A DNA stretch of 64,000 nucleotides from Minisyncoccota bacterium (GTDB taxonomy: Bacteria; Patescibacteriota; Minisyncoccia; Phycocordibacterales; JABAAK01). The DNA lies in contig OY764332.1 of assembly GCA_963668425.1 (NCBI GenBank), forward strand, positions 188,943 to 252,942, in the 5' to 3' direction. Shown piece by piece: positions 1,085 through 58,188 of this stretch. The translations under genes were made by a program, and so were the position numbers. Under the pieces are notes generated by a model. That model was given only the letters and a program-made list of their open reading frames with translations, searched no databases and was not told the origin of the DNA. The stretch's first letter is position 1. Every line of letters begins with the position of its first letter.

Positions 1085-3784
1085 CTATTCAACTACTATT
1101 GCTGTAGGGACGTTGCCAGAAGGAGTGTCACTGGAAGCGGGAAGGATGTTGCTATCACTGCTTTCTGTGGTAGTGTCTCTGGTGGTACTGCTTACTTCTT
1201 CAGTTCCTGCTGATGAATCTTGAGTGGGCACAGTTGGTGGTGCAGGAGGGGTGGTAGAAGTAGGAGGAGATGTACTATCTATAGCGACCACTATAGAAAG
1301 TAGCTCGAGTGCCTGTTGTAACAATGAAAGTGCCTCTTGGAGCCTTGCCTCTCGGAACTCTTCACTAGCTTGGATAGATGGATTTGACGTATTGACAATG
1401 ACTGATGAAGTCAGTAACGCGAAAGGAGAGGTTGCCATGAGATGAGAAAAGAAGTCATCAAGTGGTGGTGGTGTTCCTGTGTCTACTGAGAAGGTGGCAT
1501 TGAAGGATACCCCTCGTGCTTTGTCAGCGTTGTAATAATCGCCTGAGATAGCTACATATACCGCACCATCTTGTAGTGTATTCATCGGATTAATGGTTAT
1601 GGTCATGTTGTCATTGCTCATATTTGCTTCAAACGGTATGCCATATCCGTATACGTCATCGGTACGTAACACTACAAAACTTGCTAGGTCATTTGTAGTA
1701 AATAGTGTTTTATTGATATCTCTATATGCTGCTTGATTAAAGGTTATGGTAATGTTTACTGCATTGTCCTCAATAATTGTGCCATCTTCGGGAGTAGAAG
1801 TTACAACAAACCCTGTTGAAACTGCAATAGTGAATGTGTTAGTAGCTGTGGCACCCTGATTGTCAGCAGCATCGTAGTAGCCATTGCTTACAGCGACATA
1901 TACTGTACCATTTGCTAGGTCATTAGTCGGATCAATGGTAACCTTCGTGTTACCTGCATTTATGGAAGCGCTGAACGGAATGTCTGTTCCGTTTGCGTCA
2001 GTGCTTTTTAGTGTTATGAGGCCTGAGAGTGCAGTGGTGTCAAATGCTGTCTCGCTGGTGTCCTGATATATCGCTTCATCAAATGTAAGCACTACATCGG
2101 TACCTGCATCAACAACCGTAGCACCACTTACTGGAGAGAATGACACTGTTGGTGCGGTGGTGTCTGCTATTGGAACTGCAATAGTGAATGTGTTAGTAGC
2201 TGTGGCACCCTGATTGTCAGCAGCATCGTAGTAGCCATTGCTTACAGCGACATATACTGTACCATTTGCTAGGTCATTAGTCGGATCAATGGTAACCTTC
2301 GTGTTACCTGCATTTATGGAAGCGCTGAACGGAATGTCTGTTCCGTTTGCGTCAGTGCTTTTTAGTGTTATGAGGCCTGAGAGTGCAGTGGTGTCAAATG
2401 CTGTCTCGCTGGTGTCCTGATATATCGCTTCATCAAATGTAAGCACTACATCGGTACCTGCATCAACAACCGTAGCACCACTTACTGGAGAGAATGACAC
2501 TGTTGGTGCGGTGGTGTCTGCTATTGGAACTGCAATAGTGAATGTGTTAGTAGCTGTGGCACCCTGATTGTCAGCAGCATCGTAGTAGCCATTGCTTACA
2601 GCGACATATACTGTACCATTTGCTAGGTCATTAGTCGGATCAATGGTAACCTTCGTGTTACCTGCATTTATGGAAGCGCTGAACGGAATGTCTGTTCCGT
2701 TTGCGTCAGTGCTTTTTAGTGTTATGAGGCCTGAGAGTGCAGTGGTGTCAAATGCTGTCTCGCTGGTGTCCTGATATATCGCTTCATCAAATGTAAGCAC
2801 TACATCGGTACCTGCATCAACAACCGTAGCACCACTTACTGGAGAGAATGACACTGTTGGTGCGGTGGTGTCTGCTATTGGAACTGCAATAGTGAATGTG
2901 TTAGTAGCTGTGGCACCCTGATTGTCAGCAGCATCGTAGTAGCCATTGCTTACAGCGACATACACTGCACCATTTGCTAGGTCATTAGTCGGATCAATGG
3001 TAACCTTCGTGTTACCTGCATTTATGGAAGCGCTGAACGGAATGTCTGTTCCGTTTGCGTCAGTGCTTTTTAGTGTTATGAGGCCTGAGAGTGCAGTGGT
3101 GTCAAATGCTGTCTCGCTGGTGTCCTGATATATCGCTTCATCAAATGTAAGCACTACATCGGTACCTGCATCAACAACCGTAGCACCACTTACTGGAGAG
3201 AATGACACTGTTGGTGCGGTGGTGTCTGCAGGACCTACCGTAGGCACCACATCGGTACCTGAATTAATAACACCAACAACACCAACAGCACCATTTACTG
3301 GAGAGGGTAATGCCGTTGGTACGGCGGTGTCTACAGGTTCTACTACTGTAGCAATAGAGAAAATTGCGCTTGCAGCATCACCTTGCAAGCCATTTTTGTC
3401 ATAATACGCATCACTTATCGCAATATATACTGCCCCACCTGAAAGAGTGTCAGTCGGATCAATAGTAATTTCTGTGTTGCCTGCATCTATAGAAGCAGCG
3501 AACGGGATAGCGGTGCCGTCTGCATCGGTGGTGTGTAGTGAAACTACATTTTTAAGTGTTGTGTCAGTAAACACTCCTCCTTCAGCATCTACATACACTG
3601 CCCGATCAAATGAGATAGTAATAGTAGTATTTGCATCCTGCTCTACTGCATCCGCTGCAGGAGAAAATGAAGCATTGAAGTCAGCGGCGTATACAGAACT
3701 CACCATCACTAAGAACGACGCTGTGAAAGCAGCTATACCGATTACAATGGTATACAAACTCCTTGATATTTTTTTTGGTCTCAT
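1085..3784 (-). CDS. large secreted cell-surface protein with six Ig-like domains (SbsA/Big-like; S-layer- or adhesin-like), four of them near-identical
   Basis: ORF 1085..3841. The likely start is the internal Met at 3784 (MRPKKISRSLYTIVIGIAAFTASFLVMVSSVYA, a signal peptide). A ~118-aa unit (TAPTVSFSPVSGATVVDAGTDVVLTFDEAIYQDT...NTFTIAVPIAD) recurs four times, flanked by diverged copies. The C-terminal tail is PT-rich. Confidence 0.8.
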   Translation of the reverse strand: MRPKKISRSLYTIVIGIAAFTASFLVMVSSVYAADFNASFSPAADAVEQDANTTITISFDRAVYVDAEGGVFTDTTLKNVVSLHTTDADGTAIPFAASIDAGNTEITIDPTDTLSGGAVYIAISDAYYDKNGLQGDAASAIFSIATVVEPVDTAVPTALPSPVNGAVGVVGVINSGTDVVPTVGPADTTAPTVSFSPVSGATVVDAGTDVVLTFDEAIYQDTSETAFDTTALSGLITLKSTDANGTDIPFSASINAGNTKVTIDPTNDLANGAVYVAVSNGYYDAADNQGATATNTFTIAVPIADTTAPTVSFSPVSGATVVDAGTDVVLTFDEAIYQDTSETAFDTTALSGLITLKSTDANGTDIPFSASINAGNTKVTIDPTNDLANGTVYVAVSNGYYDAADNQGATATNTFTIAVPIADTTAPTVSFSPVSGATVVDAGTDVVLTFDEAIYQDTSETAFDTTALSGLITLKSTDANGTDIPFSASINAGNTKVTIDPTNDLANGTVYVAVSNGYYDAADNQGATATNTFTIAVPIADTTAPTVSFSPVSGATVVDAGTDVVLTFDEAIYQDTSETAFDTTALSGLITLKSTDANGTDIPFSASINAGNTKVTIDPTNDLANGTVYVAVSNGYYDAADNQGATATNTFTIAVSTGFVVTSTPEDGTIIEDNAVNITITFNQAAYRDINKTLFTTNDLASFVVLRTDDVYGYGIPFEANMSNDNMTITINPMNTLQDGAVYVAISGDYYNADKARGVSFNATFSVDTGTPPPLDDFFSHLMATSPFALLTSSVIVNTSNPSIQASEEFREARLQEALSLLQQALELLSIVVAIDSTSPPTSTTPPAPPTVPTQDSSAGTEEVSSTTRDTTTESSDSNILPASSDTPSGNVPTAIVVE
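1822..3237. repeat. 4 x 354-bp near-perfect tandem direct repeats inside the surface-protein gene
   Basis: Identical 60-aa shadow ORFs on the plus strand at 1884, 2238, 2592 and 2946 (period 354). Long identical DNA blocks such as ctgcaatagtgaatgtgttagtagctgtggcaccctgattgtcagcagcatcgtagtagcc recur at 1827, 2181, 2535 and 2889. Confidence 0.9.
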
Positions 3785-4011
3785 AAATATAATTAACGTA
3801 TAAAAGATAATAATGAAAATATCTGAACACAAAACACACACACCAGATATGTCTGTAGTGTACCAACATAAAATGCTTTATATTGCTTCCTATGGCGTAT
3901 TTTGTGTATAAGTCGTGGAAATATTAGAGCCCTTACTAGAATAGGGGAAGAAATCCTCAAACAAGTGGAAATATGCTGAAGGTGGGACGTATGTGGTGCT
4001 GTGTCGGGAGG

Positions 4012-5845: not shown

Positions 5846-6030
5846 ATATACAAAGTATACCACCTACATGCAGTAGTAAAATTGCGTATGCTACACCATA
5901 CAATGCCTACACATCATAACCCCTTATGGCAAAGTCCGCTGTATTTTGTTATACTACAGGCAGTATCGGAAATGTTTTCCGAATTGCTATTTGTTGAGCT
6001 ATATACATCTAATTGTATTGGAGATTTGAA

Positions 6031-6768
6031 ATGATGCAAAAAAATTTTGTGGTACTTGTTGCGTTTTTGGCAGTGAATATGGTCACGCCATTTGTTGGGT
6101 ATGCGGACACTCTTGATGTGTACCTTGGTGTGTTTTCCGAAAGTAAGGGTGTTTCAGGATACCTAACACCACATTTTTCAAGTGATCCTGCTGTTGGAGG
6201 ATCTCTTGCAGCAGAGTGGCGTGAGTATGTGTTTGGTGTTGAAACCGCAAAGTTTGTCGGACTGCGCTCTATGTTAAGCACTTCTGGGCATACAACAATT
6301 TTTGTTAACACACAAAGAAAGATTCGTGGCTATGATGCGGATGTACAGTACAACTATATTCGTATGCAATCTATGATGCCGAGCTGGTGGCCGTGGAATG
6401 ATAATAACTGCCACGAAGTGGCTGTGAAAATAAGATACCCTAAAACAGATAAGTGGCATCCATATGCCCTCACTGGAATTGCAGTTGCTGAGGATGCTTG
6501 GCTGGACACCTTTACAATAGTTGGTGGGGCTGGATCTACAGCAACCTTTCCGGTTACTCAGCGTATCAACTTTGTTGTAGATGCATTTGTTGCTACCTTT
6601 TTGTTCTCAGTTAGTCAGGATTGGAAAGTTTTTGGGAAGGCGGATGGGTCTTTCTTATTTGATCTTAAAACACTACCACTCTCGTTTGAAGCCGGGTTGC
6701 ATGCATTTAAAGAGCTTGGCGATAAACACAGAACATGGACTGATCTTTCTCTGCTATACACTTTTTGA
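6031..6768 (+). CDS. secreted hypothetical protein (signal peptide)
   Basis: A GGAGAT SD lies 6 nt before ATG 6031. The N-terminus MMQKNFVVLVAFLAVNMVTPFVGYA is signal-like. An intrinsic terminator follows. Confidence 0.6.
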   Translation: MMQKNFVVLVAFLAVNMVTPFVGYADTLDVYLGVFSESKGVSGYLTPHFSSDPAVGGSLAAEWREYVFGVETAKFVGLRSMLSTSGHTTIFVNTQRKIRGYDADVQYNYIRMQSMMPSWWPWNDNNCHEVAVKIRYPKTDKWHPYALTGIAVAEDAWLDTFTIVGGAGSTATFPVTQRINFVVDAFVATFLFSVSQDWKVFGKADGSFLFDLKTLPLSFEAGLHAFKELGDKHRTWTDLSLLYTF

Positions 6769-6856: not shown

Positions 6857-7951
6857 TTAATGCTCGCTACTGTGCGGTTTATCTAATAACTCTCGACTAT
6901 ACTCACCTCCCTTTCCGGTAATTTTAAATACATCCTTATCAATTAAATCGTATTTCTGTTCCGCGCTGTTGTAATGATTTACTGCCGCAGAAAGTGATTT
7001 TCCGACACCGTGAAATGCTTGCATATGGTTTTCAAGTCGCTTCCGCAACACCTCAACTCGTTTAATAATCTCCTGTGCATGTTCTTCAACTTTGAGTGAT
7101 CGTAATCCGAGATTCACCGTTTGTAAATATGCTAACAGAGTAGTTGGTGAGACGATTACTACTTTGTGTTGCTTAAACGCATACTCCAACATATTTTCCG
7201 CACTCTCTCCAGTACCAATTTTTTGTGTCAACAGGTCATAATACAATGACTCAGATGGAATAAACATAAACGCATAATCAAGTGTTCCTTCTTTCGGCAA
7301 AATATACTTTTCTGTCTCCTGAATCCGTGCCTTAATATCCTCTTTTAACCTGCGCTCTGCTTCAGTGACTTCGGCATTTTTAAGATCACCATCTAACAGC
7401 TTCGTATAGTTATCGAGTGAGAACTTTGCGTCAATACTGATCATCTGCTTGTCCCGTAAAAATACCACTGCATCCGCCCGTGCACCATTTTTGAATGAGT
7501 GCTGCATTGCGTATGTATTTGGCGGTAGTACATTAGCAATCACCTGCTCTAATACATACTCTCCGACTACACCCCGCCGTTGTGGATTTTTTAGTGTCCG
7601 CTCAAGTGACTGTAGCTGATCTGTGAATGACAGCATCTCCCGCCCAGTTGTCTTCACCTCCGTTAACTCTTTCGTGATATCCTCCACCAACTGCTTTGAT
7701 GAGTCAAACTGTGCGCGCATTTGTTTGTGCATCACTTCTGCTTGTGACTGCATCTGTTTGTTCACCATCTCAGACCCCTGGTGTAGTCGTGTATCAAGGG
7801 TCTCACGAAAATCACGCAATTGTGCTTCAAGTGTTTTTGTGTCATTAGCTGATTTTTCCCGACGTATAATTAGCCATATCATCACCCCAAGCACAATACA
7901 TGTGATAAGTAGGGATACTAAGCTAAGCAATATACTGACCTCCATTGTCAA
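6857..7951 (-). CDS. rmuC: DNA recombination protein RmuC
   Basis: N-terminal TM segment, coiled-coil region, then a conserved RmuC-like core (GEYVLEQVIANVLP...AFMFIPSESLYYDLL...VVIVSPTTLLAYL). Confidence 0.75.
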   Translation of the reverse strand: MTMEVSILLSLVSLLITCIVLGVMIWLIIRREKSANDTKTLEAQLRDFRETLDTRLHQGSEMVNKQMQSQAEVMHKQMRAQFDSSKQLVEDITKELTEVKTTGREMLSFTDQLQSLERTLKNPQRRGVVGEYVLEQVIANVLPPNTYAMQHSFKNGARADAVVFLRDKQMISIDAKFSLDNYTKLLDGDLKNAEVTEAERRLKEDIKARIQETEKYILPKEGTLDYAFMFIPSESLYYDLLTQKIGTGESAENMLEYAFKQHKVVIVSPTTLLAYLQTVNLGLRSLKVEEHAQEIIKRVEVLRKRLENHMQAFHGVGKSLSAAVNHYNSAEQKYDLIDKDVFKITGKGGEYSRELLDKPHSSEH

Positions 7952-8714: not shown

Positions 8715-8754
8715 AAGGTTGCACGACACTATACTTGCGTGCAACCTTTTATTC
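8715..8754 (+). terminator. rho-independent terminator
   Basis: The stem is aaaggttgcacg / cgtgcaaccttt with a 12-nt loop, followed by tttattc. Confidence 0.65.
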
Positions 8755-8772
8755 ATACTTAAAACATACTGT

Positions 8773-9636
8773 ATGTTTACAGATTTCCCTATTCAAACAC
8801 TTGCCCGAGAACACTATCCGGCACCTCTCATAGAGATACCGCAAGTGCCGGAAAAACTATATGTCCGAGGTGAGCCGATAGATGCCACGAAACGAATGAT
8901 TGCCGTGATTGGTGCTCGCCGTTACTCAGAGTATGGCAAAAAATCGTGTGAAAAAATTATTGCTGATCTCGCTCCTTACCCTATCACCATCGTTTCTGGG
9001 CTTGCTATCGGTATAGATGGCATAGCGCACCAGGCGGCTCTCAGCGCAGGACTTACTACTATTGCTGTCATCGGTTCTGGACTTGATGAAGATGTTATGT
9101 ACCCGAGCACTAACAGAATGCTCGCTAAATGTATTTTGGAGCAAGGTGGCACTCTTATATCAGAACTTGAGCCACATGTTCGCGGCGCGAAATATACTTT
9201 CCCCTCTCGCAATAGGATAATGGCTGGGCTTTCAGAAGTCGTTATAGCCGTAGAATGCACAGAGAAATCTGGTACTCGTATTACCACCCGTCTTGCTCTT
9301 GACTATAACAAAGAAGTCGGCGCTGTCCCTCATGTTATTTTCTCAGAAACTGGGGCTGGGGCTAATGCCCTTATACATGCAGGTGCACACGTCATCAGGA
9401 GTGGTCAAGATATCGTAGAAATTCTTGGATTAGAACCTGTGGAACAACAAACACTTGATCTCACCACCCTTACTGACGATGAGCAGAAAATATACCGCTT
9501 GCTCACTAGCCCAAAAACGAAAACCAACCTTTCTCAAGAGAGTAACCTACCCCCTCACAAACTTTCCGCCGTTCTTGCCGGGCTGGAGATGAAAGGACTT
9601 ATTACCGAAATTCTTGGCACCATTCAACGCATATAA
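8773..9636 (+). CDS. dprA: DNA processing protein DprA (Smf), competence / recombination mediator
   Basis: Rossmann-fold DprA signature ...RMIAVIGARRYSEYGKKSCEKIIADLAPYPITIVSGLAIGIDGIAHQAAL...GSGLD.... The start is moved to Met19 of the ORF (8773), downstream of the terminator. Confidence 0.8.
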   Translation: MFTDFPIQTLAREHYPAPLIEIPQVPEKLYVRGEPIDATKRMIAVIGARRYSEYGKKSCEKIIADLAPYPITIVSGLAIGIDGIAHQAALSAGLTTIAVIGSGLDEDVMYPSTNRMLAKCILEQGGTLISELEPHVRGAKYTFPSRNRIMAGLSEVVIAVECTEKSGTRITTRLALDYNKEVGAVPHVIFSETGAGANALIHAGAHVIRSGQDIVEILGLEPVEQQTLDLTTLTDDEQKIYRLLTSPKTKTNLSQESNLPPHKLSAVLAGLEMKGLITEILGTIQRI

Positions 9637-22451: not shown

Positions 22452-24137
22452 TTAGATAACAATACCAATAACACGTGACACCTCTTCTAAGGAGGTCATA
22501 CCTTTCAATACCTTCCACAACGCGTCATCTTCCATAAAAGGAAACCCTTGTTTGCGTACCTCTGTGCGTAATGCGGTAATGCCGCCCTCTTCACGAATAA
22601 CTCGCTCAATTTCATCATTAACCTCAAACACCTCAAATACACCGATTCTTTTTTTGTATCCGTCATTACACTCCTGACAATTTTGTGACGCCTCACTTGG
22701 TCTTCTGATGGCATTCAAGTCAAAATCTTCTTTATATTGCTCTGGAAACTTTTCTATCATTTGCTGTATTACTGTTTTCTGACTGTCCGTTAACGGGTGT
22801 TGCTCTGAACAGGTCGGGCATATTCGTCGTACCAGTCGTTGCGCAATAATAATGTTAATTGCCCGTGAAAATGTTTGTGGATCTGTGTCAAATTGCAGAA
22901 GTCGTGGTAGTGCTCCGAGCGCATCATTGGTGTGTAATGTTGAAAAAACCAAATGCCCGGTTAGTGCCGCCTGTATAGCGACTTGTGCGACTTCAGCGTC
23001 GCGAATCTCCCCCACTAAAATGACATCAGGGTCCTGCCGAAGGATAGCACGCAATCCTGTGGCAAATGAGTACTCTCCATCAATCTCTGTTTGCACGATA
23101 CCTTCAAGGCGGTATTCTATTGGGTCTTCCAGTGTAACGGTCTTGATGTGCTCACCTTTTACTATACTAAGAAATGAGTATAGCGTTGTTGTTTTTCCTG
23201 AGCCAGTTGGTCCGGTGTTTAAGATCATGCCATTCGGTCGTTTGATATGCTTCATAAAAACCTCAAGCATCATTGGATGAATCCCTAATCGCTCAATACT
23301 ATGCACAATATTCTTCGGATCAAGGAGCCGTATCACAAATGAGCCACCTTCGTCCTCTGGTATCACAGATGAACGAACACTGAGTGTTCTCTTCGGAAGA
23401 TGCACCACAAAACCTCCGTCTTGTGCCCCTTTCGCAGTTATTTTCATACTGGAAACCAATTTCATTCTGGTAACCACCTGTTTATACTCTAGTTCTCCGA
23501 GTTCAGTTATATCAGTGAGTACACCATCTATACGATACCGCACCACTCCACCGTCTGATGACGGTTCAATATGTATGTCTGATGCGTTTACCGCAATTGC
23601 AGTCGCCACAATATATTCAACATTCTTTGATATTCGCCGTGTCCGGCTCATTTTTTTGAGATCACGCAACATATCGCGAACTGCCTCAATTGATTCTATG
23701 CTTTTTATTTTTTGTTCTAATTCTTCGTTTGCGATAGAGAGTGTTCCTGGTGAAGTTGCACTCGTTGTAATAATATCTTTGTAATACATCCATATTTGCT
23801 CCAGCGTTTTTGTTGAAGCAAGGGTTAATTCGTGTGAATATCCTTTCTCCTCAAGATTGCGAAGTATTTCTGCTAGTTTCTTATTATTAGGCTCATTCAC
23901 TGCTATTGTCAATACTCCTTTTAATCGCTTATATGCCGCCATTTTTGCTTCTCGCGCATCAACCTCTTTGACGAGCTGGAGTGCATTAGGATTTACTTGT
24001 ATATCGGCAATATGAATGGCAGGGTGGTGATATTTACCAGAAAGATATTCCATCAATCGTTCTTCTTCCTCTTCCTTGTACTCTTTCAAGTCCTTTTGAA
24101 ACTCTTGTACTGGTGTATTAGTAACAGTCATTGTCAT
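22452..24137 (-). CDS. pilB: type IV pilus assembly ATPase PilB (GspE family)
   Basis: NGMILNTGPTGSGKTTTLYS (Walker A), TLEDPIEY, tetracysteine CPTCSEQ...CQEC. Start at Met17 (MTMTVTNT). Confidence 0.85.
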   Translation of the reverse strand: MTMTVTNTPVQEFQKDLKEYKEEEEERLMEYLSGKYHHPAIHIADIQVNPNALQLVKEVDAREAKMAAYKRLKGVLTIAVNEPNNKKLAEILRNLEEKGYSHELTLASTKTLEQIWMYYKDIITTSATSPGTLSIANEELEQKIKSIESIEAVRDMLRDLKKMSRTRRISKNVEYIVATAIAVNASDIHIEPSSDGGVVRYRIDGVLTDITELGELEYKQVVTRMKLVSSMKITAKGAQDGGFVVHLPKRTLSVRSSVIPEDEGGSFVIRLLDPKNIVHSIERLGIHPMMLEVFMKHIKRPNGMILNTGPTGSGKTTTLYSFLSIVKGEHIKTVTLEDPIEYRLEGIVQTEIDGEYSFATGLRAILRQDPDVILVGEIRDAEVAQVAIQAALTGHLVFSTLHTNDALGALPRLLQFDTDPQTFSRAINIIIAQRLVRRICPTCSEQHPLTDSQKTVIQQMIEKFPEQYKEDFDLNAIRRPSEASQNCQECNDGYKKRIGVFEVFEVNDEIERVIREEGGITALRTEVRKQGFPFMEDDALWKVLKGMTSLEEVSRVIGIVI

Positions 24138-24231
24138 AATTGTACCATGCTTGCCTCTGGTACCCGAAGAGAGCCATTTTTGCATGTGGTGTTATGCGTT
24201 TTGCAGATTGCTTCGTGTGGTGGTGTGTGCA

Positions 24232-25595: not shown

Positions 25596-27215
25596 CTATT
25601 TATCACACTTAATCCCACCCTCATATGTTTTATCGCCTTGTGTTATATCTCCCCATGTAATATCAAAGCAGTGTGTTGTACTAAGAGGTATTTGTATGGC
25701 ACTGTCTTTATCAAGTAGCGGACCTGTATTTGCCGGTATTATGAATACCATACAAAACTTTTGAACATTCTTGTTAAAGTAAAAATCAACAGTAAACCCA
25801 TCTCCTAGTTTTTTCACCCTATTTTGAATTGAAAAAGCAAAATCACTATTAACGACCTTTGATGATTTATCGTATGCTGTGTATTCTGCAAGAATACCAT
25901 TTGTACCATTGTAGGTGTGATCAATAAAGTGAATCTTTTGATCAGACCTTGCACTCTTAAGATTGTCTACACCACTAATTTTAAAATTAAATTGAGCGCC
26001 GTGCTTTTTTCCGTAAGCAGCACTTAACTCCTCCCCTTTGGGTGGATGAATAAGGTATTGTGTATTTGGACAATTTGTAACAGATGATTTGATGAATGAT
26101 TGTATCTGAGAGGTTAGGTGTGCATCTTCATTTTTATTTTTCCATGGTAGTCCATGCCAAAATTTCTTCTGCACAACTTTTGTTTCAGTTTGGTCTGTAT
26201 TTGGTACTTTCTCAGATTCTTCAACTCCAATAGATACAGCAGGAAAAGCAACAACAATCTCTACGTCATCTGGTAGTTGTATTACTGATTCATCGGGTTT
26301 GTTTGGTGGCGTGCAGTTAATAACCTTCGCCCCTTCATTTTCATTCTCCTCATTATAGGTATATACCCTATCACTCACCGCTCTTGTATATAAAACCTGA
26401 TAAGAATACTGCAATGGAATGGGTGATGTGTCATGCTGCAAAGATTTTTTAATGCTATTTAATTGATCTCTAAAATTAGTGTCAACGATTTCAGGGCAGC
26501 GAGTTATGGTTAGTTTTTTACTTGATTTGTCAAATTCAATACCATTTTCTGGAATTTCCAGATTGTTTGAGTATAATTCAGAACCTTGTCCGACTTCCTG
26601 TAGACCTGTGATTGTTTGAAATAACCTAGGTCGCAGGAGGGATGGAGCAATAAAGTTTAAGATAACCCAAGAAAGTAGCAGAATAGCGGTGCCGATTGCA
26701 GCACTTTTTACTCGCCCTTTTGCGTCAGAAAAAACTGCAACATTGCCTCCAAACTCGGCATAGATCATCCGAGTGCCATGCACTGCCAGCAGTATGACCA
26801 TAAGTATCCCAGAAAGTGTGAAAATGATACTAAAAAAACGACCAAAAATTCCTTGGATTGTTCTACTTACAGACTCCCTGTCATTGTTACTTGCTTTAAT
26901 TTCTTTTCCTGCGCCAAAAATACTGCTGTATAGGTGTAATCTCAACGGCTCTTTCCCTGCTATACTCTGCTGAGCAGGATTAACGGTTGTTGGTGGCGAT
27001 GTTTCGTTTTCATTATCTTCGCCATCTTTGTCATCTTCGCTATCTTTGTTATCGTTGGTGTTTCCTAGATTATCAGGTAATTCAACATCGGCTGCATTGG
27101 TTTCCTGTATGTCAACTATCGGACCTTGTGCAAACAAGACACCACCAAAAAGACCCCCTATACTACAGACGAAAAGTAAACTGAATATCAGATTGTTGTA
27201 AATCTTTGTTTTCAT
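25596..27215 (-). CDS. membrane protein with acidic low-complexity region and a VirB2/TrbC-like two-helix hairpin, plus a large extracytoplasmic domain
   Basis: The start was moved to Met20 (27215). The hairpin is IQGIFGRFFSIIFTLSGILMVILLAVHGTRMIYAEFGG...AKGRVKSAAIGTAILLLSWVIL. There is a paralogous hairpin in the CDS at 44701..45870. Confidence 0.5.
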   Translation of the reverse strand: MKTKIYNNLIFSLLFVCSIGGLFGGVLFAQGPIVDIQETNAADVELPDNLGNTNDNKDSEDDKDGEDNENETSPPTTVNPAQQSIAGKEPLRLHLYSSIFGAGKEIKASNNDRESVSRTIQGIFGRFFSIIFTLSGILMVILLAVHGTRMIYAEFGGNVAVFSDAKGRVKSAAIGTAILLLSWVILNFIAPSLLRPRLFQTITGLQEVGQGSELYSNNLEIPENGIEFDKSSKKLTITRCPEIVDTNFRDQLNSIKKSLQHDTSPIPLQYSYQVLYTRAVSDRVYTYNEENENEGAKVINCTPPNKPDESVIQLPDDVEIVVAFPAVSIGVEESEKVPNTDQTETKVVQKKFWHGLPWKNKNEDAHLTSQIQSFIKSSVTNCPNTQYLIHPPKGEELSAAYGKKHGAQFNFKISGVDNLKSARSDQKIHFIDHTYNGTNGILAEYTAYDKSSKVVNSDFAFSIQNRVKKLGDGFTVDFYFNKNVQKFCMVFIIPANTGPLLDKDSAIQIPLSTTHCFDITWGDITQGDKTYEGGIKCDK

Positions 27216-28167
27216 TTTGAGCAAATACACGAATAGGTATTTCGGTGTTCTCACCCTGAACAGAAATATCAAGCTTTCTACCCTCCTTTAGATGGCTTGT
27301 TTCGTTATTTACAAACCACCTGTATTGTATCGCATTTTTTTCAAAATCGGACTGATTGAAGTAAAATGGGTACACTGAAGCCGTAATTTCCTCACTCCCG
27401 AGAGAAAGATTTTTGGAGAAAACCCGATCTCGAGCAAGTCCATATAGTAAGGTGTGTGGATATACTAATAATCGCGGTTCAATGATAGGAACATTAATGA
27501 TTTTTTCAAAGGCAACCTTGCCGCTTTTAATGAGTGTTGCTTCAACCTGTACAATGATATACCTATTCAAATAACTTCCACCATCTTCATACACCACACT
27601 ACTAACTCCGGGACCCCGACTGCTATGATATCGTGATTCAATCATCCAACGAAATGAAAAGTCCCTCTCGGTATATATAACACCATCTTGGTCAACATAC
27701 TGTATTTTTGCTGAAAGCTTTATCGGTGTCTGTGGTCCTGCGAGCCGATGTCCCCGATATAGTGGCGTGACTACTGAATCCGCCTCCCACAACACATCAA
27801 AAATAACTGGTCGTATCCATCTGGAAATATCTATAAATCTTTTGTCGCCTTGTGAATCAAAGTAATGTATTCGTGCGTTCACTCGCTTTGGTGCGCTGCT
27901 GGCAATTTCGGTAATCTCCATCTTGTTTGTGTACTCTGCCCGCTCAGTGCCGTCAACATACCATGTGACCAATTGAATACTGGAGATAAATGATTTGTTA
28001 GATCTGATGGTGAAATCAACATACTTACCTGGTGACGGGTACGACTCACTTACAACAATTTCATATGCATCATAACTCCCTTGCACTTGCGCGAATGCAG
28101 TGTGAGAAAGCATTAAAAATCCACTCAAAAAAACAATGTATGCATAGAAAAGAAATAGCGTTCGCAT
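27163..28167 (-). CDS. secreted hypothetical protein
   Basis: Signal peptide MRTLFLFYAYIVFLSGFLMLSHTAFAQ. No recognisable domain. Confidence 0.5.
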   Translation of the reverse strand: MRTLFLFYAYIVFLSGFLMLSHTAFAQVQGSYDAYEIVVSESYPSPGKYVDFTIRSNKSFISSIQLVTWYVDGTERAEYTNKMEITEIASSAPKRVNARIHYFDSQGDKRFIDISRWIRPVIFDVLWEADSVVTPLYRGHRLAGPQTPIKLSAKIQYVDQDGVIYTERDFSFRWMIESRYHSSRGPGVSSVVYEDGGSYLNRYIIVQVEATLIKSGKVAFEKIINVPIIEPRLLVYPHTLLYGLARDRVFSKNLSLGSEEITASVYPFYFNQSDFEKNAIQYRWFVNNETSHLKEGRKLDISVQGENTEIPIRVFAQNENKDLQQSDIQFTFRL

Positions 28168-32497: not shown

Positions 32498-34825
32498 TCA
32501 TCGAACCTCATACCCATTTTGTTTTAACGCCTCATACACGATGTTCATCTGCTTGTTTACCACTTCGTCGTCAAGGGTTTTGCTGTCTGACTGAAACACC
32601 AAACGGAACGCGTGTGACTGCTTGCCATCTTTTTCAAATGAATCAAACAAGTTTATTTTTTGTAAGTAGTCCCCACCGCTCTTCTGTAGCAGTGCTTCAG
32701 TGTTTGTTACGCTTGCTCCATTTGGTACAAACACTGCCACATCCCGTAATATAAATGGATACTTTGATGGTGATACATATTGCACCGTGCTGATAGGCGA
32801 TATGGTGCTGTCAGGTTTATGTACTTGCACTTCTTCCAGAGCCACCTCCCATACCCCATTTTCAAAACTGCCGGGCATGCTTACTACTTGTCGTATCATC
32901 TTTTCAATAGTAGTTATATTTGCCTTTGCTCGTCCTACTGTTTCCTGAACCCCAAGCGCAAGGTGCACTTTTTCACCCTCTTCAGTAAATATGCTTCCGA
33001 TTTCTGCGATTTGTATTGTGTCCAAACCTACTAGTTCGCCATTGTATGCATTCTGTACTAATGCTCTTTCTATTCCTGGTCGCAGTGATGACCGCAAACA
33101 CCCTTTATCTTTTGCGACTGGATAGGAGACACATATCTTATCTTTCACACAAAATGATGAGGTCATCACCTCAGAAAACCCGATTTTTTGCAGCGCTCGC
33201 AACACTAAAAATCGTTTTGTATGTGTCTCGCTGCTCTTCGGGAAAAAACGATTACGTATTTGTATCCACATTGAATGCAACCCACCACCTGTGGGTGTAG
33301 TACTTGGTATTGCATCATATCCAAGTATACGCCCTACTTCTTCAATTACATCGTTTTCATCTTGTATATCAGGCCGTTCAACTGGAACAGTAACGGCAAA
33401 TCGTTTTTTATCATCCCAAATTTGTCCGAACCCGACAATATTTTCATCAGTAATTTTAGAAATCATGACTTTTTTACCCCCTTGGGCACCAATATATGAA
33501 TCAGTGTCAAGTAGGATACCGACGTGACTTATTCCTGCGTCACTCTTTCCTGGCAGTACTGGAAACCCTTCCTCAAACACACTTTCATTGCGTGTAATTG
33601 CCTTTTTATCAGATGAAACAGAAAATACGATATCCCCTGGTTGTGGATCAGTGGTTGGTGTGGCAAAAAAGTACTGATTAATTGACATTCGTGGTATTGA
33701 CTTTCCCGCTTGCGCCGCACACCAGCATACAAATGAAGAGCAATCAAACGTGTCGGGGGCATCTCGAGAAACAGACGCACCCCATTTGTATGGTTTGCCG
33801 CTTTGTTTTTTTGCAGCTGTAATAAATTGTTTTCGTGGATCAACATATTCATATGAAAAACCGAGTCGATCCAGGACACTGGCAATTTCTTTTTGTGTGT
33901 AGGTGCTGCCAAGTAGATTATTTACTTCTGTTATTGAAACACCAGTTTTTCGTTGTTTCGGTAATGACACACGGTGGTGATCTACAGAGTTAATGATGGA
34001 GCCGTATGCACCAAACACCTCAGCCACTCGTTGTGCGGTATAGCCAATCACTACCGGAGGAAGTCCTTGCGAAAACCGTAGTGCGGCATCAGATGTGTGC
34101 CCTGTACGTCGCATTGTTCTTCGCACACTTACACTATCAAAAGAAGCGATTTCTATATATATATCTTTTGTGTTTTCATCTACTTTTGTCTTTTCTCCAC
34201 CTTTTATCCCAGCGAGTGCGATGGCACGATTGTCAGCCGCGTCAGCAATTACTACATCACCAACTTGCAATACTATCTCTTCATTGCCGAGTAGTACTAT
34301 CGTCTCTTCTTTTTGTGCCTGTCGCACTCTAAATTGTCCTGATGTTTTTTGTGCATCAAATGTGTGTATTGGTTGGCCAATGTCAAAAAGAATGTAATTT
34401 GATAAATCAACAATCGGATTGATGCATCGCTGTCCGATTGATTCAAGGTGTTTTTGTATTTCTGCCGGCGTCTCAGAAAGTGATATATTTTCAACTTTTA
34501 ATATTGTATATCTATCACATTTTTCTGTATGTATGTATTCTGCGGCACTGTTATATGAAAACTGTTCCTGAAAGTATTGCTTTTTGAGTGGTAGTGAAAA
34601 TATTGCTGCAATTTCTTTTGCAATACCGTAGTGTGCAAGGCAGTCAACAGATCGATCTGGCAGAATATCCAGTTCATACACCGCGTCATTACTGCCTGTT
34701 TTCCGCACTTCTTCTACTTCAAATGAGTGCTTTAGTAATTTTTCTGAAACCTCTTCTGGTGATGGCAATTGTTCATCAAAGAATGCTTGTAGCCATTGAT
34801 GGCTATATATACTTTTCATAGTCAA
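32498..34825 (-). CDS. pheT: phenylalanine--tRNA ligase beta subunit carrying an inserted NlpC/P60-like papain-fold domain
   Basis: Canonical PheT N-terminus (SIYSHQWLQAFF), B3/4 domain (INPIVDLSNYILFDIGQPIHTFD), B5 domain, then TVPVERPDIQDENDVIEEVGRILGYDAIP and a C-terminal FDX-ACB domain. Between B5 and TVPVERPDI sits a ~140-aa segment YKWGASVSRDAPDTFDCSSFVCWCAAQAGKSIPRMSINQ...PGDIVF...SHVGILLDTDSYIGA. Confidence 0.85.
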   Translation of the reverse strand: MTMKSIYSHQWLQAFFDEQLPSPEEVSEKLLKHSFEVEEVRKTGSNDAVYELDILPDRSVDCLAHYGIAKEIAAIFSLPLKKQYFQEQFSYNSAAEYIHTEKCDRYTILKVENISLSETPAEIQKHLESIGQRCINPIVDLSNYILFDIGQPIHTFDAQKTSGQFRVRQAQKEETIVLLGNEEIVLQVGDVVIADAADNRAIALAGIKGGEKTKVDENTKDIYIEIASFDSVSVRRTMRRTGHTSDAALRFSQGLPPVVIGYTAQRVAEVFGAYGSIINSVDHHRVSLPKQRKTGVSITEVNNLLGSTYTQKEIASVLDRLGFSYEYVDPRKQFITAAKKQSGKPYKWGASVSRDAPDTFDCSSFVCWCAAQAGKSIPRMSINQYFFATPTTDPQPGDIVFSVSSDKKAITRNESVFEEGFPVLPGKSDAGISHVGILLDTDSYIGAQGGKKVMISKITDENIVGFGQIWDDKKRFAVTVPVERPDIQDENDVIEEVGRILGYDAIPSTTPTGGGLHSMWIQIRNRFFPKSSETHTKRFLVLRALQKIGFSEVMTSSFCVKDKICVSYPVAKDKGCLRSSLRPGIERALVQNAYNGELVGLDTIQIAEIGSIFTEEGEKVHLALGVQETVGRAKANITTIEKMIRQVVSMPGSFENGVWEVALEEVQVHKPDSTISPISTVQYVSPSKYPFILRDVAVFVPNGASVTNTEALLQKSGGDYLQKINLFDSFEKDGKQSHAFRLVFQSDSKTLDDEVVNKQMNIVYEALKQNGYEVR

Positions 34826-48564: not shown

Positions 48565-50631
48565 TTATGGTGTCGGTCTTTTGTCCCGAAACCCTACCCC
48601 GTGCAATCGCACTATATCAAGCCCTCCAGTTGGTCCGGCTGTTGTCGGAAGGTGGTATCGCTCAATGTGGTCAGTATCGCTGCAAACGGTATTTAACTCT
48701 ATGCCGCTATATTGTTCTTTTGCTCCTGTCGTTGGCTCCAGGAGATACACTTCGTCAACCTTCCCAGAAATGAGCGAGGTTCCTATCACAGCTACAATAT
48801 TTTTACTTGGGTGCTTATTGGAAAGACGGTTAAAGACAACCTGCTGATCATTTTCTGCGGTTGTATCACACAAGACTCTTTGCTTGTTGTTTGGTGCCTC
48901 GTTTTTGTTGAACACTGAGATGACTGTCGCGGTATCCGATGCTCTCACACCGCTAAAATATACCAGTCGCCCATTTTTATTAATAGCTATAGGTAGGTTC
49001 CTGAAATGCAGATGATCAGTGAGTGGTGATGTATCACTTGTTGCGATTGTGGTTACTGTGGTATCAAGTATGCTGTCAATGGCACAAAGGGCGGTGCCAT
49101 CTGAGCATAGTATGGTGTATGTATTCAACCCATTGCCGTATGCAAAAATATTTCCGTTGGCAATTGCGTCACTTCGCTTTAATTTTGATGCTCTTGAGCC
49201 GGCCGATACCACGTGCTTACCGGCGCTGTCCCGATACCAGAGTGAAACTGTGTTGTTGATAACCTGCAATGCATCAAGGAATCTGAAAGACACATTGTTA
49301 ATTTCACTCGGTGTGATGTTGGTGTTGTTGTCTGGGTTTGGGTCTGGGTATATCTGTCGACAACGATTACTGGATGTGTTGTTCGGCACATACTCAAATT
49401 CACTACACCCGCCGTTAATATCACCTGAGGAGATAGGGGCGTTGCCACTGAATAGGCGAACCGTTCGATTGCCGGCAGTATTTCTGAAGTATATAAGCAC
49501 TCGATTAGCATCACTGTATATGTGTCGTACGGTGTTCTTGCTGACACCACCCTCTACGATACGGGTTGAGGAAGCATTATCAATTCTATAGAGCACACCA
49601 CTGTATGATCGTGCGTATAGGAGCCCTCCTGAAGGGTGGATGGACACAATGCTTCGCGGATCGTTTGTGCAAAAGCGACAGGTGCTGAGGTTTGACTTCC
49701 CCAGTACCCGAACAACAGCATCCTGTATCCTGGAAGACACTTTATACACCGCATCTTTTACTCCAACAGACCCGCTTGCAGTTAGCGCTTCATCTATGGA
49801 TGTCTGTGGAATGAAAAAGAGTAGTCCATTATCTCCGAGGATATAGAGCCCATCGTTAGTAAATTCAGCTGCGATTATTTTTGCACTCTCTTCACAAAAA
49901 CTATCCACAAAGGTGTTTCCTAATCCATCCCGACATACGATTTCAGCATTCTCTGGATTAGTGACGATACTGCCGTTCTCATCAAGGTACTGCCCTGACT
50001 CATCCACTCTTGGGCCATATGCATAGTGATACACAACTGAGGCATCTTCATTTTCGGAGCTGCTGACAAAGGTGCTCAGAATATTTTGACCTGGCTCAAG
50101 TATGCGGCTGGTAATCTGTGTCTTGAATGAGATTTGTTTTGTATTGCCGTCAATGACATATTCCGCATCAATTTGTGCCTGTACTCTCGGTTGCTTTGTA
50201 GTGTCATTTTCTAGTTCAAAGGAGAGGTTTGTTACCGAAACGGACTTGTCAGTAAACGGCACCCATCCATCAGAGGAGCTGCATGTATTCGGGTCTGGAT
50301 CAAATAGTTTTTTTGCTCGCTTTACCTGCTTATTTGTACTGTCATACCAAATTTTTATTCGTGCATTTAATTGATCAGTAAATGCCAGGCAGTGGCATGT
50401 GTTTCCTACCGTTTGCCCACAGGTGTAGTCATACCCGAAATAGGTCTCGCGTGATAACTCAGAGAACAGAAACCGAACGGTCTCAAGTGCAACTCTCTCA
50501 TCCTGTACCCGCACTTGCTGCCCAATAAATGTGGTAAAAAAGCTTAACATAGTGGTCAACACAATACTCGCCAATCCGATAGCGACAATGAGTTCAATGA
50601 GTGTAAAGCCCCGTGTATGTGAAGACCTCAT
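48565..50631 (-). CDS. very large type IV pilin-like protein (prepilin N-terminal methylation motif + ~650-aa domain)
   Basis: Start at Met14. RGFTLIELIVAIGLASIVLTTMLSFF is a class III signal / N-methylation site (G|FTLIE), followed by a large Cys-containing domain. Confidence 0.75.
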   Translation of the reverse strand: MRSSHTRGFTLIELIVAIGLASIVLTTMLSFFTTFIGQQVRVQDERVALETVRFLFSELSRETYFGYDYTCGQTVGNTCHCLAFTDQLNARIKIWYDSTNKQVKRAKKLFDPDPNTCSSSDGWVPFTDKSVSVTNLSFELENDTTKQPRVQAQIDAEYVIDGNTKQISFKTQITSRILEPGQNILSTFVSSSENEDASVVYHYAYGPRVDESGQYLDENGSIVTNPENAEIVCRDGLGNTFVDSFCEESAKIIAAEFTNDGLYILGDNGLLFFIPQTSIDEALTASGSVGVKDAVYKVSSRIQDAVVRVLGKSNLSTCRFCTNDPRSIVSIHPSGGLLYARSYSGVLYRIDNASSTRIVEGGVSKNTVRHIYSDANRVLIYFRNTAGNRTVRLFSGNAPISSGDINGGCSEFEYVPNNTSSNRCRQIYPDPNPDNNTNITPSEINNVSFRFLDALQVINNTVSLWYRDSAGKHVVSAGSRASKLKRSDAIANGNIFAYGNGLNTYTILCSDGTALCAIDSILDTTVTTIATSDTSPLTDHLHFRNLPIAINKNGRLVYFSGVRASDTATVISVFNKNEAPNNKQRVLCDTTAENDQQVVFNRLSNKHPSKNIVAVIGTSLISGKVDEVYLLEPTTGAKEQYSGIELNTVCSDTDHIERYHLPTTAGPTGGLDIVRLHGVGFRDKRPTP

Positions 50632-50949
50632 GTACTTATAATACCACCCTGCTGTGGTGGCATAGGACACTGTATTGCCATTATAATTAGGTAGATATAT
50701 TCTAATGTGTATGCAAAAAGGGACTTAATTTGCCCTTAAACATGCTCTGCAGTTATCAAAAAACCCTATAAAATAAGGATTTTTCTTATATTTTCTCTTA
50801 AAATTGACGAAATTTGATAAATATTGTATACTATATATAGTTTTTCTTTGACACACAATCCACATAAGGCAATCTATATCTGATACAAATGGTTGTTTTG
50901 TGTGGGTTGTGTGTTGTAATTTAACTAAATAACTAAAAAAGGAGAATGT

Positions 50950-55893: not shown

Positions 55894-58188
55894 TTAGTTT
55901 CGTCCGTGCCTCCTTTCTTTTTTGCCAAAAAATCCTCTATCTTTACCTCCCCTATCTCCTCCACCTCCCCTGCCCCCTCTACTATCTCCTCTGTCTCCTC
56001 TGCCCCCTCTACTATCTCCTCTGCCCCCTCTGTCTCCTCTACCTCGCCTATTGTTGTGTGATTTTTGATTTGGCGATTGAGTATGGTCAGCATTCTTCAG
56101 TACTGCATCAAAAAATGACGGATCTCTATCTTTTACACTAAGTGCAATTCGTCCATCAGGACGAACCTCTTTTACTACAACTGGCACTATATCTCCAGAG
56201 GAAACCACACTATCTACCGTATCAATTCTCTGTGGAGAGAACTCAGACACATGAATCATGCCATCTTTACTCGGTGAGAGCTCCGCAAACGCGCCAAAGT
56301 CGGTAATATTCTTGATGGTGGCATCAATTGTGTCACCAACTTCAAATGAGCGAGTCATGTCGTGTATTTTCTGTATTACTGAGGCAACTGCTTCTTTGTT
56401 GCCACTCACTGAAACTGTTCCGTCGTCTTCAATATCAATACTATCAACACCAGTATCAGTACGAATCTGCTTGATGGTTTTTCCTCCAGTGCCAATAACC
56501 ATACCGATACAGTCAGGATCAATAGTAATTGTTTCTATATGTGGCGCGTGTGGTGAAAGTGAAGTACGTGGTTCAGGTAACTCTTGCGTGATAGTTTCCA
56601 AGATGTGTAGTCGCGCATCTTGCCCTTTTTTCAGTGCCTCAGAAAGGATCGGGAGTGTGATACCTTCAATTTTTACATCCATTTGGATTGCAGTTATACC
56701 ATTTTTTGTGCCGGCGACTTTAAAATCCATAGCACCGTGATGATCTTCTGGGCCCTGTATGTCAGTAAGCAAAACGTGCTTATCCCCTTCTTGCATCAGC
56801 CCGATGGCAATACCGGCAACCGGCGCGGTAATCGGTACACCACCGTCCATTAGTGCGAGCGTAGAAGCACAAACAGAACCCATTGAGGTGGAACCATTTG
56901 ACGCGAAGCATTCAGAAACTAGACGCATTGTATATGGAAAATCATTCTGAGAAGGCAATACGTTACGTAGTGCCTTCTCAGCAAGTGCTCCGTGTCCGAT
57001 TTCTCGTCGCTTTGGACTGCCGATCCGCCCAACTTCACCCGTTGAATATGGTGGAAAGTTATAATGATGCATAAATCGCTCATCAGTTTCTGGGTCTTCA
57101 ATAGTGTTCAGTGATAACGCGTCTCCCGGACTGCCGAGCGTTAATGCAGTAAACACATGTGTGCCTCCTCGGTAAAAGATACCGCTGCCGTGCAATCGCG
57201 TGGACATACCACCAGCTTGTGCATATAGTGGCCTTACTTCGTCCATACTTCTTCCGTCGACACGCCGGCTATTTTTGACTGCCTCACTGTGTACCAGAGC
57301 ATCAGTCATCTCCTCAAAATATGAATCGGTGACCTTTCTTTCGTCAGGGATGCCTTTTTCCTCAAGGAGTTTCATCCATTCTTCCTGTACTGAGCCCAAA
57401 CTCATTTCAGAAGAAAACATTGCCTGCTCTATTTTTGGGCGGATGATGGTATCAAAAATTTGTTTTGCCTCGGCGGACAGTTCGGTGACGGAAATTTCTT
57501 TTTTCTCCTGTCCGACCTGTGTGATGATATCTTGCTGAAATTTTTGTAAGTCGGCAAGTGTGTGCACTGCCTGTTCGCTGACCTGCATAATCTGTTCTTC
57601 TGAAACCTCTTTACCCTCCATCTCTATCATGGTGATTGTATTTTCTTTGCCGCACAAAAGAATATGGTCGGTTAGATCTTTTGCTTCTTCAAAGTTGGTG
57701 AATGGTTGCCAGTTATTCGTGGTTTGTGAAAACCGAACAGCGGATATCGGTCCGTTCCACGGGATAGATGAGGTGCCGAGTGCAAGCGATGCTCCAATGA
57801 CCGCAAGTACATCGGGGTTGTATGAGCCGAATGAAAGTACCATTGCCACAACCTGTACTTCTTTGTGGAGTTCCTTCGGGAAGAGAGGGCGGATGGTTCG
57901 GTCTATAATCCGTGCGTTCAGCACTGCTTCCTGTGATGGTCGCCCTTCCCGTCGCACAAAGCGACTACCTAATATCGCGCCGACTGAGTAGAATCGCTCT
58001 TCAAACTCAACAGAGAGTGGAAAATAATTTTGTGTTGCTTCATGTTCTGACATAGTTGCTGATACAAACACAACTGTATCTCCTGCTTCTATAAAGACAG
58101 AGCCGCCGGCATTTTCGGCGAGGTTAGTGAATGTTGCAGTTATGGCAACATCGTTGATTGTTGTAGTAAAGGATTTTTTTTGTTGCAT
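55894..58188 (-). CDS. pnp: polyribonucleotide nucleotidyltransferase (PNPase) with RG-rich C-terminal tail
   Basis: Two RNase PH domains, KH and S1 domains. The tail is RRGRGDRGGRGDSRGGRGDRGDSRGGRGGGGDRGG. Confidence 0.9.
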   Translation of the reverse strand: MQQKKSFTTTINDVAITATFTNLAENAGGSVFIEAGDTVVFVSATMSEHEATQNYFPLSVEFEERFYSVGAILGSRFVRREGRPSQEAVLNARIIDRTIRPLFPKELHKEVQVVAMVLSFGSYNPDVLAVIGASLALGTSSIPWNGPISAVRFSQTTNNWQPFTNFEEAKDLTDHILLCGKENTITMIEMEGKEVSEEQIMQVSEQAVHTLADLQKFQQDIITQVGQEKKEISVTELSAEAKQIFDTIIRPKIEQAMFSSEMSLGSVQEEWMKLLEEKGIPDERKVTDSYFEEMTDALVHSEAVKNSRRVDGRSMDEVRPLYAQAGGMSTRLHGSGIFYRGGTHVFTALTLGSPGDALSLNTIEDPETDERFMHHYNFPPYSTGEVGRIGSPKRREIGHGALAEKALRNVLPSQNDFPYTMRLVSECFASNGSTSMGSVCASTLALMDGGVPITAPVAGIAIGLMQEGDKHVLLTDIQGPEDHHGAMDFKVAGTKNGITAIQMDVKIEGITLPILSEALKKGQDARLHILETITQELPEPRTSLSPHAPHIETITIDPDCIGMVIGTGGKTIKQIRTDTGVDSIDIEDDGTVSVSGNKEAVASVIQKIHDMTRSFEVGDTIDATIKNITDFGAFAELSPSKDGMIHVSEFSPQRIDTVDSVVSSGDIVPVVVKEVRPDGRIALSVKDRDPSFFDAVLKNADHTQSPNQKSHNNRRGRGDRGGRGDSRGGRGDRGDSRGGRGGGGDRGGKDRGFFGKKERRHGRN

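Follow-up and report, generated by a model that had tools for sequence, protein, structure and literature searches.

What kind of protein is encoded by a gene in which four successive domains are written with almost the same DNA sequence, and how could such sameness persist? The question is raised by a 64-kb stretch of DNA (contig OY764332.1; hereafter, the window) from Candidatus Paceibacterota, a group of the Candidate Phyla Radiation (CPR) that the NCBI taxonomy files under the phylum Minisyncoccota; the genome is of about 0.7 Mb. The minus strand of the window contains a gene for a secreted protein with several Big_5 domains, the middle ones encoded by an array of 354-bp tandem repeats. 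The explanation favored here, with a probability of roughly 0.78, is that of a secreted immunoglobulin-like (Ig) repeat protein with a recombination-homogenised array and a length that varies by whole domains, in the manner of the so-called Periscope Proteins. All positions are numbered along the window; identifiers of the P0001 type designate orthologous proteins, and those of the L001 type their genomic loci.

The repeat was delimited in three ways. Tandem Repeats Finder detected a single array at 1816–3229, with a period of 354 bp, 4.0 copies, 99% matches, 0% indels and a score of 2807, which is the sole tandem repeat of the window with a period above 30 bp. The comparison of the sequence with itself at a lag of 354 gave a repeated span of 1810–3234 and, in the coding register, the array occupies 1814–3229 of the minus strand, in frame, with 354 bp (118 amino acids) per unit. 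So, the span of 1822–3237 given in a preliminary description of this DNA was correct within about 10 nucleotides (nt), and the in-frame period of 354 bp announced there was found again both by Tandem Repeats Finder and in the coding-register copies. Concerning the qualification of the repeats as nucleotide-identical, it stands for units 2 and 3 and fails for units 1 and 4, each of which is 2 nt off, while the milder wording of almost perfect repeats is adequate, with pairwise differences among the four units of 0–4 nt. Two sites set unit 1 apart from units 2 and 3, namely unit positions 261 (G/A, Ala/Thr) and 266 (synonymous), the former being the polymorphism that had been described as ANG[A/T]VYVAVS. 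Unit 4 is distinguished from units 2 and 3 by its positions 348 and 352, at which the array gives way to unique sequence. Chance cannot account for a periodic match of 1.4 kb at 99% identity.

A close comparison was possible with locus L001, which is syntenic with the window and 98.08% identical to it over 7971 + 3229 aligned bases. The sole structural difference between them is one additional 354-bp unit in L001, the protein of which, P0001, contains five units and has 1017 amino acids (899 + 118). If the usual 95% criterion is adopted for this 11-kb locus alone, four-copy and five-copy alleles thus occur within one species; the within-species comparison of copy number comprises these two genomes, and one difference was observed. 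The expectation that copy number could change without breaking the reading frame is in agreement with this pair, in which 4 copies and 899 amino acids (window) stand against 5 copies and 1017 amino acids (L001).

Units 1–4 of L001 are 100% identical over 1416 bp, and at four sites all the window units differ from all the L001 units: those giving the changes G22S, I33V and A58E, plus one silent site. The variants of the last unit at positions 348 and 352 are common to the window and L001, which indicates that the array predates the split between them. At the locus divergence of 1.9%, units evolving independently would differ pairwise by about 7 nt, and the chance that four of them stayed unchanged would be about 1e-6 (a rough Poisson estimate). 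Position 261, which is A (Thr) in window units 2–4, G in unit 1 and G in all the L001 units, shows homogenisation in progress. In a more distant relative, L002 (a circular 647-kb contig, with flanks 77% identical), three units of 360 bp are 100% identical, with a perfect self-match of 1082 nt.

The same pattern was met in the family as a whole, which was compared through 18 orthologues containing 2–8 Big_5 domains, i.e., 0–6 middle domains. For the first and last domains, the closest sequence is that of the domain at the corresponding position in another genome, with one marginal exception, the first domain of P0013 (0.59 versus 0.56). Of the middle domains, 43 out of 57 have their closest match within the same protein, typically with 0.92–1.00 identity; the exceptions come mainly from P0004, P0005 and P0012, and from P0022 and P0023, which have a single middle domain. 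P0004 and P0005 both contain eight domains, although domains 2 and 4 are 100% identical only in P0004, and domains 3 and 6 reach 95% identity only in P0005. Since these two proteins differ in homogenised pairs at equal domain count, gene conversion would have acted besides unequal exchange. Taken together with the four array-wide fixed substitutions that distinguish the window from L001, the nearest-neighbor relationships of the middle domains lend weight to the concerted evolution proposed in the preliminary description, and the pattern can be read from the sequences as concerted evolution with copy-number change.

Higher-order repeats, in which non-adjacent domains are 99–100% identical, were also observed, in P0003 (domains 2 = 5 and 3 = 6), P0008 (2 ~ 4 and 3 = 6), P0007 (3 ~ 6) and P0004 (2 = 4). 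In view of them, the recombining unit may span two or three domains in these relatives.

Concerning the nature of the repeat unit, the top Pfam family for the protein was Big_5 (PF13205), with a score of 180.5 bits (cut-off, 23.6) and an E value of 1.4e-53, in six stretches that match profile positions 1–103 of 105. A hidden Markov model (HMM) derived from the domains of the protein itself and run with hmmsearch gave envelopes at residues 34–150, at the four middle units and at residues 657–773. Among the Ig-like families proposed for comparison, Big_5 was matched, and Big_2 and SbsA_Ig were not. A two-unit model was obtained with AlphaFold2, using as input an alignment (A2) of 21 adjacent-domain pairs from the orthologues. 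The model shows a mean predicted local distance difference test score (pLDDT) of 96.4 and a predicted template-modelling score (pTM) of 0.68, and consists of two seven-strand beta-sandwiches, with one short helix each, joined by a linker of about 11 residues that includes two prolines. When this model was compared with the PDB using Foldseek, the matches were tandem Ig-like domains with probability 1.0 and a best E value of 1e-7 (the BIg domains of mycobacterial L,D-transpeptidases), and included also titin Z1Z2, SiiE and the S-layer proteins SbsC, SbsB and Sap. The template-modelling (TM) scores were around 0.3, so the likeness is limited to the generic Ig fold. With the Pfam assignment, the model and the PDB matches at hand, the repeat unit, previously described as Ig-like, is predicted with high confidence to be one Big_5 Ig-like domain. 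The array may form a rod-like string.

Some other matches to the protein were discarded. A PDB sequence match (8qty, E value 0.0016) was weak and taken as spurious, the query stretch covering more than one repeat unit; all the NCBIfam matches were below threshold and inflated by the repeats; and the secondary Pfam matches (DCX, DUF1410, Peptidase_S24 and others) resulted from summation over repeats, with no significant individual stretch. The only secondary Pfam family with significant stretches was CopC, which is another beta-sandwich.

The features of the gene and its product are summarized in Table 1. The open reading frame, when delimited mechanically, reaches 1085–3841 with a GTG start. 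The conserved start is the ATG indicated in the table, and the product counted from it, exactly the database protein P0002 (encoded on a 696,550-bp contig in NCBI/ENA), has a length in good agreement with the 900 or so amino acids formerly attributed to it. This is the only gene of the window with a Big_5 domain. The protein has only one hydrophobic segment, which is N-terminal (KD19 maximum at residue 13), and in all the full-length orthologues it follows a run of basic residues, is about 20 residues long and leads to the motif (S/A)x(Y/H)A|(A/V)D(F/V/M), in which the bar marks the predicted cleavage position. This segment is taken as a signal peptide that is presumably cleaved by signal peptidase I (SPase I); its conservation and cleavage site agree with the earlier description of a surface protein as far as secretion is concerned. 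The composition is very acidic, with 106 Asp + Glu versus 23 Lys + Arg, and there are no Cys or Trp residues. The first domain and the middle units share only 46% identity, and the sixth domain was modelled by AlphaFold with pLDDT of about 85–90.

Table 1. Coordinates of the Big_5 protein gene, of the segments of its product and of the pilus-type genes in the window (residues are numbered in the 899-amino-acid protein)
Feature	Position	Strand	Remarks
Gene for secreted multi-Big_5 protein	1085–3784	-	899 amino acids; ATG at 3784; stop codon 1085–1087
Signal peptide	3686–3784	-	Residues 1–33, MRPKKISRSLYTIVIGIAAFTASFLVMVSSVYA before ADF; predicted SPase I site
Big_5 domain 1	3335–3685	-	Residues 34–150 (hmmsearch envelope); position-specific, not homogenised
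Pro/Val/Thr-rich linker	3230–3334	-	Residues 151–185; between domain 1 and the array
Repeat unit 1	2876–3229	-	Residues 186–303; Ala at unit residue 88; 2 nt off units 2 and 3
Repeat unit 2	2522–2875	-	Same as unit 3 over 354 nt
Repeat unit 3	2168–2521	-	Same as unit 2 over 354 nt
Repeat unit 4	1814–2167	-	2 nt off units 2 and 3, at its 3' end
Big_5 domain 6	1460–1813	-	Residues 658–775; position-specific; invariant VLRTxDxYGY motif
C-terminal module	1277–1459	-	Residues 776–836; FFSxLL, poorly predicted linker, amphipathic helix at about 808–835 (EALSLLxQALExL)
Acidic Ser/Thr/Pro-rich tail	1088–1276	-	Residues 837–899; predicted disordered; ends in AIVVE-COOH
T2SSE/PilB-like ATPase	22452–24185	-	Pilus-type gene
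558-amino-acid protein with T4SS_pilin match	25596–27272	-	Pilus-type gene
701-amino-acid protein with N-terminal prepilin methylation motif	48565–50670	-	Pilus-type gene

The C-terminal end of the protein deserves separate consideration. The motifs FFSxLL and EALSLLxQALExL are invariant columns of the orthologue alignment (A1), joined by a variable linker. The AlphaFold model of this part had low confidence: the pLDDT of the C-terminal helix (construct residues 152–179) was only 54–66, and that of the C-terminal model as a whole was 37–66; in the tail, the first 15 or so residues (about 836–850) were modelled with pLDDT below about 50, and the construct stopped before residues 851–899. An exhaustive profile search over 1.84 billion representatives yielded about 7–8 clusters matching through the C-terminal module, with generic Big_5 proteins dominating the rest. 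As judged from this search, the module appears to be lineage-specific, and its helix could possibly be an oligomerisation or attachment element. A word-index search with the last 130 residues recovered no sequence, the parent protein included, and carries no weight as to the occurrence of the module. No domain other than Big_5 was found in the protein by Pfam or NCBIfam, and neither of these databases gave a match to S-layer anchoring modules (SLH, CWB2 and others).

Another observation at this end of the protein is that, in 13 of the 18 orthologues, the tail terminates in (V/I)(V/I/T)E-COOH (AIVVE, AVVVE, PIVTE, EVIE, EVVE and others), with a preceding tail that is not alignable. Such ends are those of P0001, P0006, P0019, P0022, P0025, P0011, P0004, P0005, P0008, P0012 and P0023, and in the window the site corresponds to 1088–1102, the last five codons of the Big_5 gene. 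The conservation of these last residues suggests a peptide used in recognition or sorting. Both the helix and the (V/I)(V/I/T)E-COOH end can be considered candidate tethers.

The mechanism proposed to account for these data is as follows. Perfect in-frame homology over hundreds of bases would favor misaligned homologous recombination or replication slippage, by which whole domains would be added or deleted, so that the protein would lengthen or shorten by one Ig domain at a time. Gene conversion and unequal exchange would carry new variants through the array and make its copies evolve together, while the unique first and last domains would escape homogenisation and stay orthologous. These domains, together with the C-terminal helix module, would be the presumed functional or attachment ends and, if the protein stays on the cell, the array would act as a spacer of adjustable length. 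Given the size of Ig domains, one extra domain adds about 4–5 nm if the array is extended. Both the recombination pathway and the adaptive value of the length change are points that we infer.

A mechanism of this kind is well known in the Periscope Proteins, which were named by Whelan et al. 2021 (PMC8201768) and found from long-read genomes of cultured bacteria (reviewed in PMC9704523). They include SasG/Aap (G5-E repeats), Rib/alpha C (Rib), Sgo_0707 (SHIRT), SAP077A_019 (Big_6) and the inverse autotransporters of the intimin/invasin type with BIg repeats (PMC8201768, PMC9704523). Like them, the window protein is a single-chain secreted protein with tandem repeats of domain size that are highly identical in DNA, each of them a folded (here, predicted) beta-sandwich, with short proline-containing linkers, a repeat number that differs between close strains, and unique conserved ends. 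Unlike them, its source is not a cultured pathogen but an uncultured member of the CPR, whose genome measures about 0.7 Mb; its repeat is Big_5; it has no sortase LPXTG signal, beta-barrel or other known anchor; instead of a head of another fold, both of its ends are again Big_5; and its C-terminal helix and acidic tail are restricted to its own lineage. Its attachment to the surface and its rod shape are, in addition, presumptive. On balance, it is probable that the window protein is a new member of the Periscope Proteins and works like one. In a literature search that was not exhaustive, Patescibacteria were not found to be associated with Periscope Proteins or with tandem repeats of Ig domains, and no paper citing the ENA/OZ accessions appeared.

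Other proteins of the same domain family behave differently. Big_5 proteins (PF13205) such as the 1439-amino-acid Ig-like domain-containing proteins of Pelagibacterales are likewise multi-domain and secreted; however, these relatives, with about 31% identity, lack near-identical tandem copies, whereas the family of the window protein homogenises its middle domains.

Several points weigh against the proposed Periscope-like protein. The protein contains no LPXTG/sortase signal, C-terminal transmembrane helix, SLH domain or other wall-binding Pfam domain; there being no recognised anchor, its retention at the surface is putative, and it might just be set free from the cell. It also lacks the head domain of another fold that typical Periscope Proteins have, although the first and last Big_5 domains may play the role of the projected functional domain. 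The difference between four and five copies rests on the counts in two assemblies, and copy number does not change constantly, as the close pairs P0004/P0005 and P0017/P0020 have equal domain numbers. The rod shape is a supposition, and the pTM of the two-unit model is 0.68. In favor of the proposal, the codon differences between the window and L001 were 23 nonsynonymous and 16 synonymous in the Big_5 gene, versus 17 nonsynonymous and 45 synonymous in four neighboring housekeeping genes (ProRS, the exonuclease, RmuC and ArgRS) taken together (Fisher p = 0.003), which agrees with a fast-evolving exposed protein, although the comparison is one of crude codon counts with small numbers.

The alternatives concern either the reality of the array, the way in which it was formed or the function of the protein. 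If consensus polishing, or the collapse or expansion of repeats, had produced the near-identity or the count of four copies, the true gene would have diverged copies or a different number of them. It is true that the window comes from a metagenome-type genome, that the only taxonomically named relative is a metagenome-assembled genome (MAG), and that a perfect repeat of 1.4 kb exceeds the length of short reads. However, the same design occurs in at least five independent assemblies, each with its own unit sequence and number (4 x 354 in the window/P0002, 5 x 354 in L001, 4 x 360 in L002, 2 in P0019, and 2 x 348 at 92% in P0017/L003), collapse would not create array-wide fixed substitutions, and the contigs are of 0.65–0.70 Mb, one of them marked as circular at 465x. 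The names of the contigs of the related assemblies are in a style that we take to be that of long-read assemblers. An artefact of assembly is thus very improbable. An even slighter chance is given to independent recent duplications as the sole origin of the array, with neither continuing homogenisation nor turnover of copy number. High identity is what a fresh duplication should give, and a single copy-number difference was seen directly, yet the array boundaries and the last-copy variants shared by the window and L001 point to an array already present in their ancestor, and four later substitutions nevertheless fill every copy of one array. Moreover, arrays in this state are met again in lineages whose identity goes from 98% to about 50%, P0004 and P0005 differ in homogenised pairs with unchanged domain count, and a repeated collapse and re-expansion would itself be a turnover by unequal exchange.

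Two further possibilities accept the array as real and concern the role of the protein, which the preliminary description took for a probable S-layer protein or adhesin, roles that are kept here as possibilities. It could be an S-layer subunit, i.e., a lattice-forming protein in which the Big_5 domains are tiles or a stalk and differences of copy number are neutral. The signal peptide, the several Ig-like domains, the very acidic composition without Cys and the presence of SbsC, SbsB and Sap among the Foldseek matches are features that the protein shares with S-layer systems, and a new class of S-layer proteins of Paceibacterales has been reported by the same criteria in a preprint (10.1101/2024.05.28.596244); this predicted class is, like SbsB, SbsC and Sap, marked by a signal peptide, strings of Ig-like domains and acidity, and was compared here by its description only. 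The long C-terminal helix could also be a coiled-coil stalk, like that of PS2 of C. glutamicum (10.1101/2024.05.28.596244). Nevertheless, lattice contacts normally need distinct, fixed domains, and the middle domains here are identical and range from 0 to 6 per orthologue, so a spacer fits better than a lattice tile; the protein also lacks SLH or any other S-layer anchoring domain in Pfam, and its likeness to the S-layer proteins in Foldseek, with TM-scores around 0.3, is one of generic Ig fold. An S-layer subunit is therefore considered improbable. Somewhat less remote, but still doubtful, is a protein for host contact or spacing of an episymbiotic Paceibacterota, which would use its C-terminal part (the amphipathic helix, the acidic Ser/Thr/Pro tail and the (V/I)(V/I/T)E-COOH end) as a new anchor, and whose stalk would be tuned by recombination to the distance of the host or to the evasion of recognition by host or phage. 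If this were true, the CPR would possess a system of Periscope type anchored on a new principle.

The locus itself is of housekeeping character. The neighbors of the Big_5 gene encode an RNase_T-type exonuclease, ProRS, RmuC, DprA, a clamp-loader subunit, ScpA/B and synthetases of the AspRS/AsnRS type, and genes for PBP1, GyrB, PNPase and the type IV pilus-like proteins of Table 1 are found farther off in the window. The gene order DprA, hypothetical, RmuC, hypothetical, ProRS, exonuclease, Big_5 protein and ArgRS is kept in L001 and L002. Searches of genome and metagenome contigs with the single protein found no relative, and the same searches with alignment A1 recovered only L003 and L004, the latter with an orthologue truncated at the contig end. 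L003 corresponds to OZ241963.1 (MAG: Candidatus Paceibacterota bacterium, a chromosome of 661,662 bp), which is the only relative among species-representative genomes. Two repeat units compared with phage DNA gave no match, so nothing indicates that they derive from a phage or a mobile element. In the window, Rfam gave one tRNA and no other match, and a scan for promoters and terminators found no sigma-70-like promoter, its only notable feature being the palindrome described below.

Other observations were made around the gene. The 72-nt gap between the Big_5 stop codon and the start of the ArgRS gene contains, at 1031–1060, a palindrome with a perfect 13-bp stem (GAGCAACAGTAGG, loop GTTC, CCTACTGTTGCTC), which is followed by a T-run on the plus strand only, i.e., in the orientation opposite to both flanking genes. 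Less than 5 kb from the array, and kept in L001 and L002, are the genes of RmuC (6857–7951, minus strand), which is recombination-associated, and DprA (8719–9636, plus strand), a recombination mediator for incoming DNA; their closeness to the array is probably a coincidence of synteny. Past the ArgRS gene and outside the left edge of the window, at some 2 kb on the downstream side of the Big_5 gene, a conserved trio of PrgI-like, TraC-like and P-loop_TraG/VirB4-like genes, of type IV secretion or conjugation type, occurs in L001 (11718–14665) and L002 (11095–14041). At 6013–6768 (plus strand) there is a gene for a protein of 244–251 amino acids, with an N-terminal hydrophobic, signal-like segment and no Pfam family, which shows 11 nonsynonymous and 9 synonymous codon changes with respect to L001, and its product may be a second fast-evolving envelope protein of the neighborhood.

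Farther away, the gene for the beta subunit of PheRS (32498–34825, minus strand; B3_4, B5 and FDX-ACB domains) contains a match to NlpC/P60 at residues 343–404 (E value 2.3e-13), an unexpected peptidase-like insertion between B3_4 and B5. Near the 3' end of the PNPase gene (55894–58188, minus strand) there is a 30-bp tandem repeat with three copies and 86% matches (55952–56042), which would encode a short repetitive C-terminal extension.

As the Periscope-type mechanism is itself well known, the gain brought by this locus is one of scope, since it takes it to a phylum beyond the cultured pathogens. The short-read assemblies of genomes of this kind will miscount the copies at this region, while the natural four-copy and five-copy alleles, placed in a conserved housekeeping neighborhood, provide a marker of strain-level surface variation for long-read metagenomes. 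Very little is known about how the surface is built and varied in the CPR/Patescibacteria, organisms with tiny genomes that live mostly attached to other cells, and the locus offers a clean example, at the level of sequence, of a candidate surface protein of variable length.

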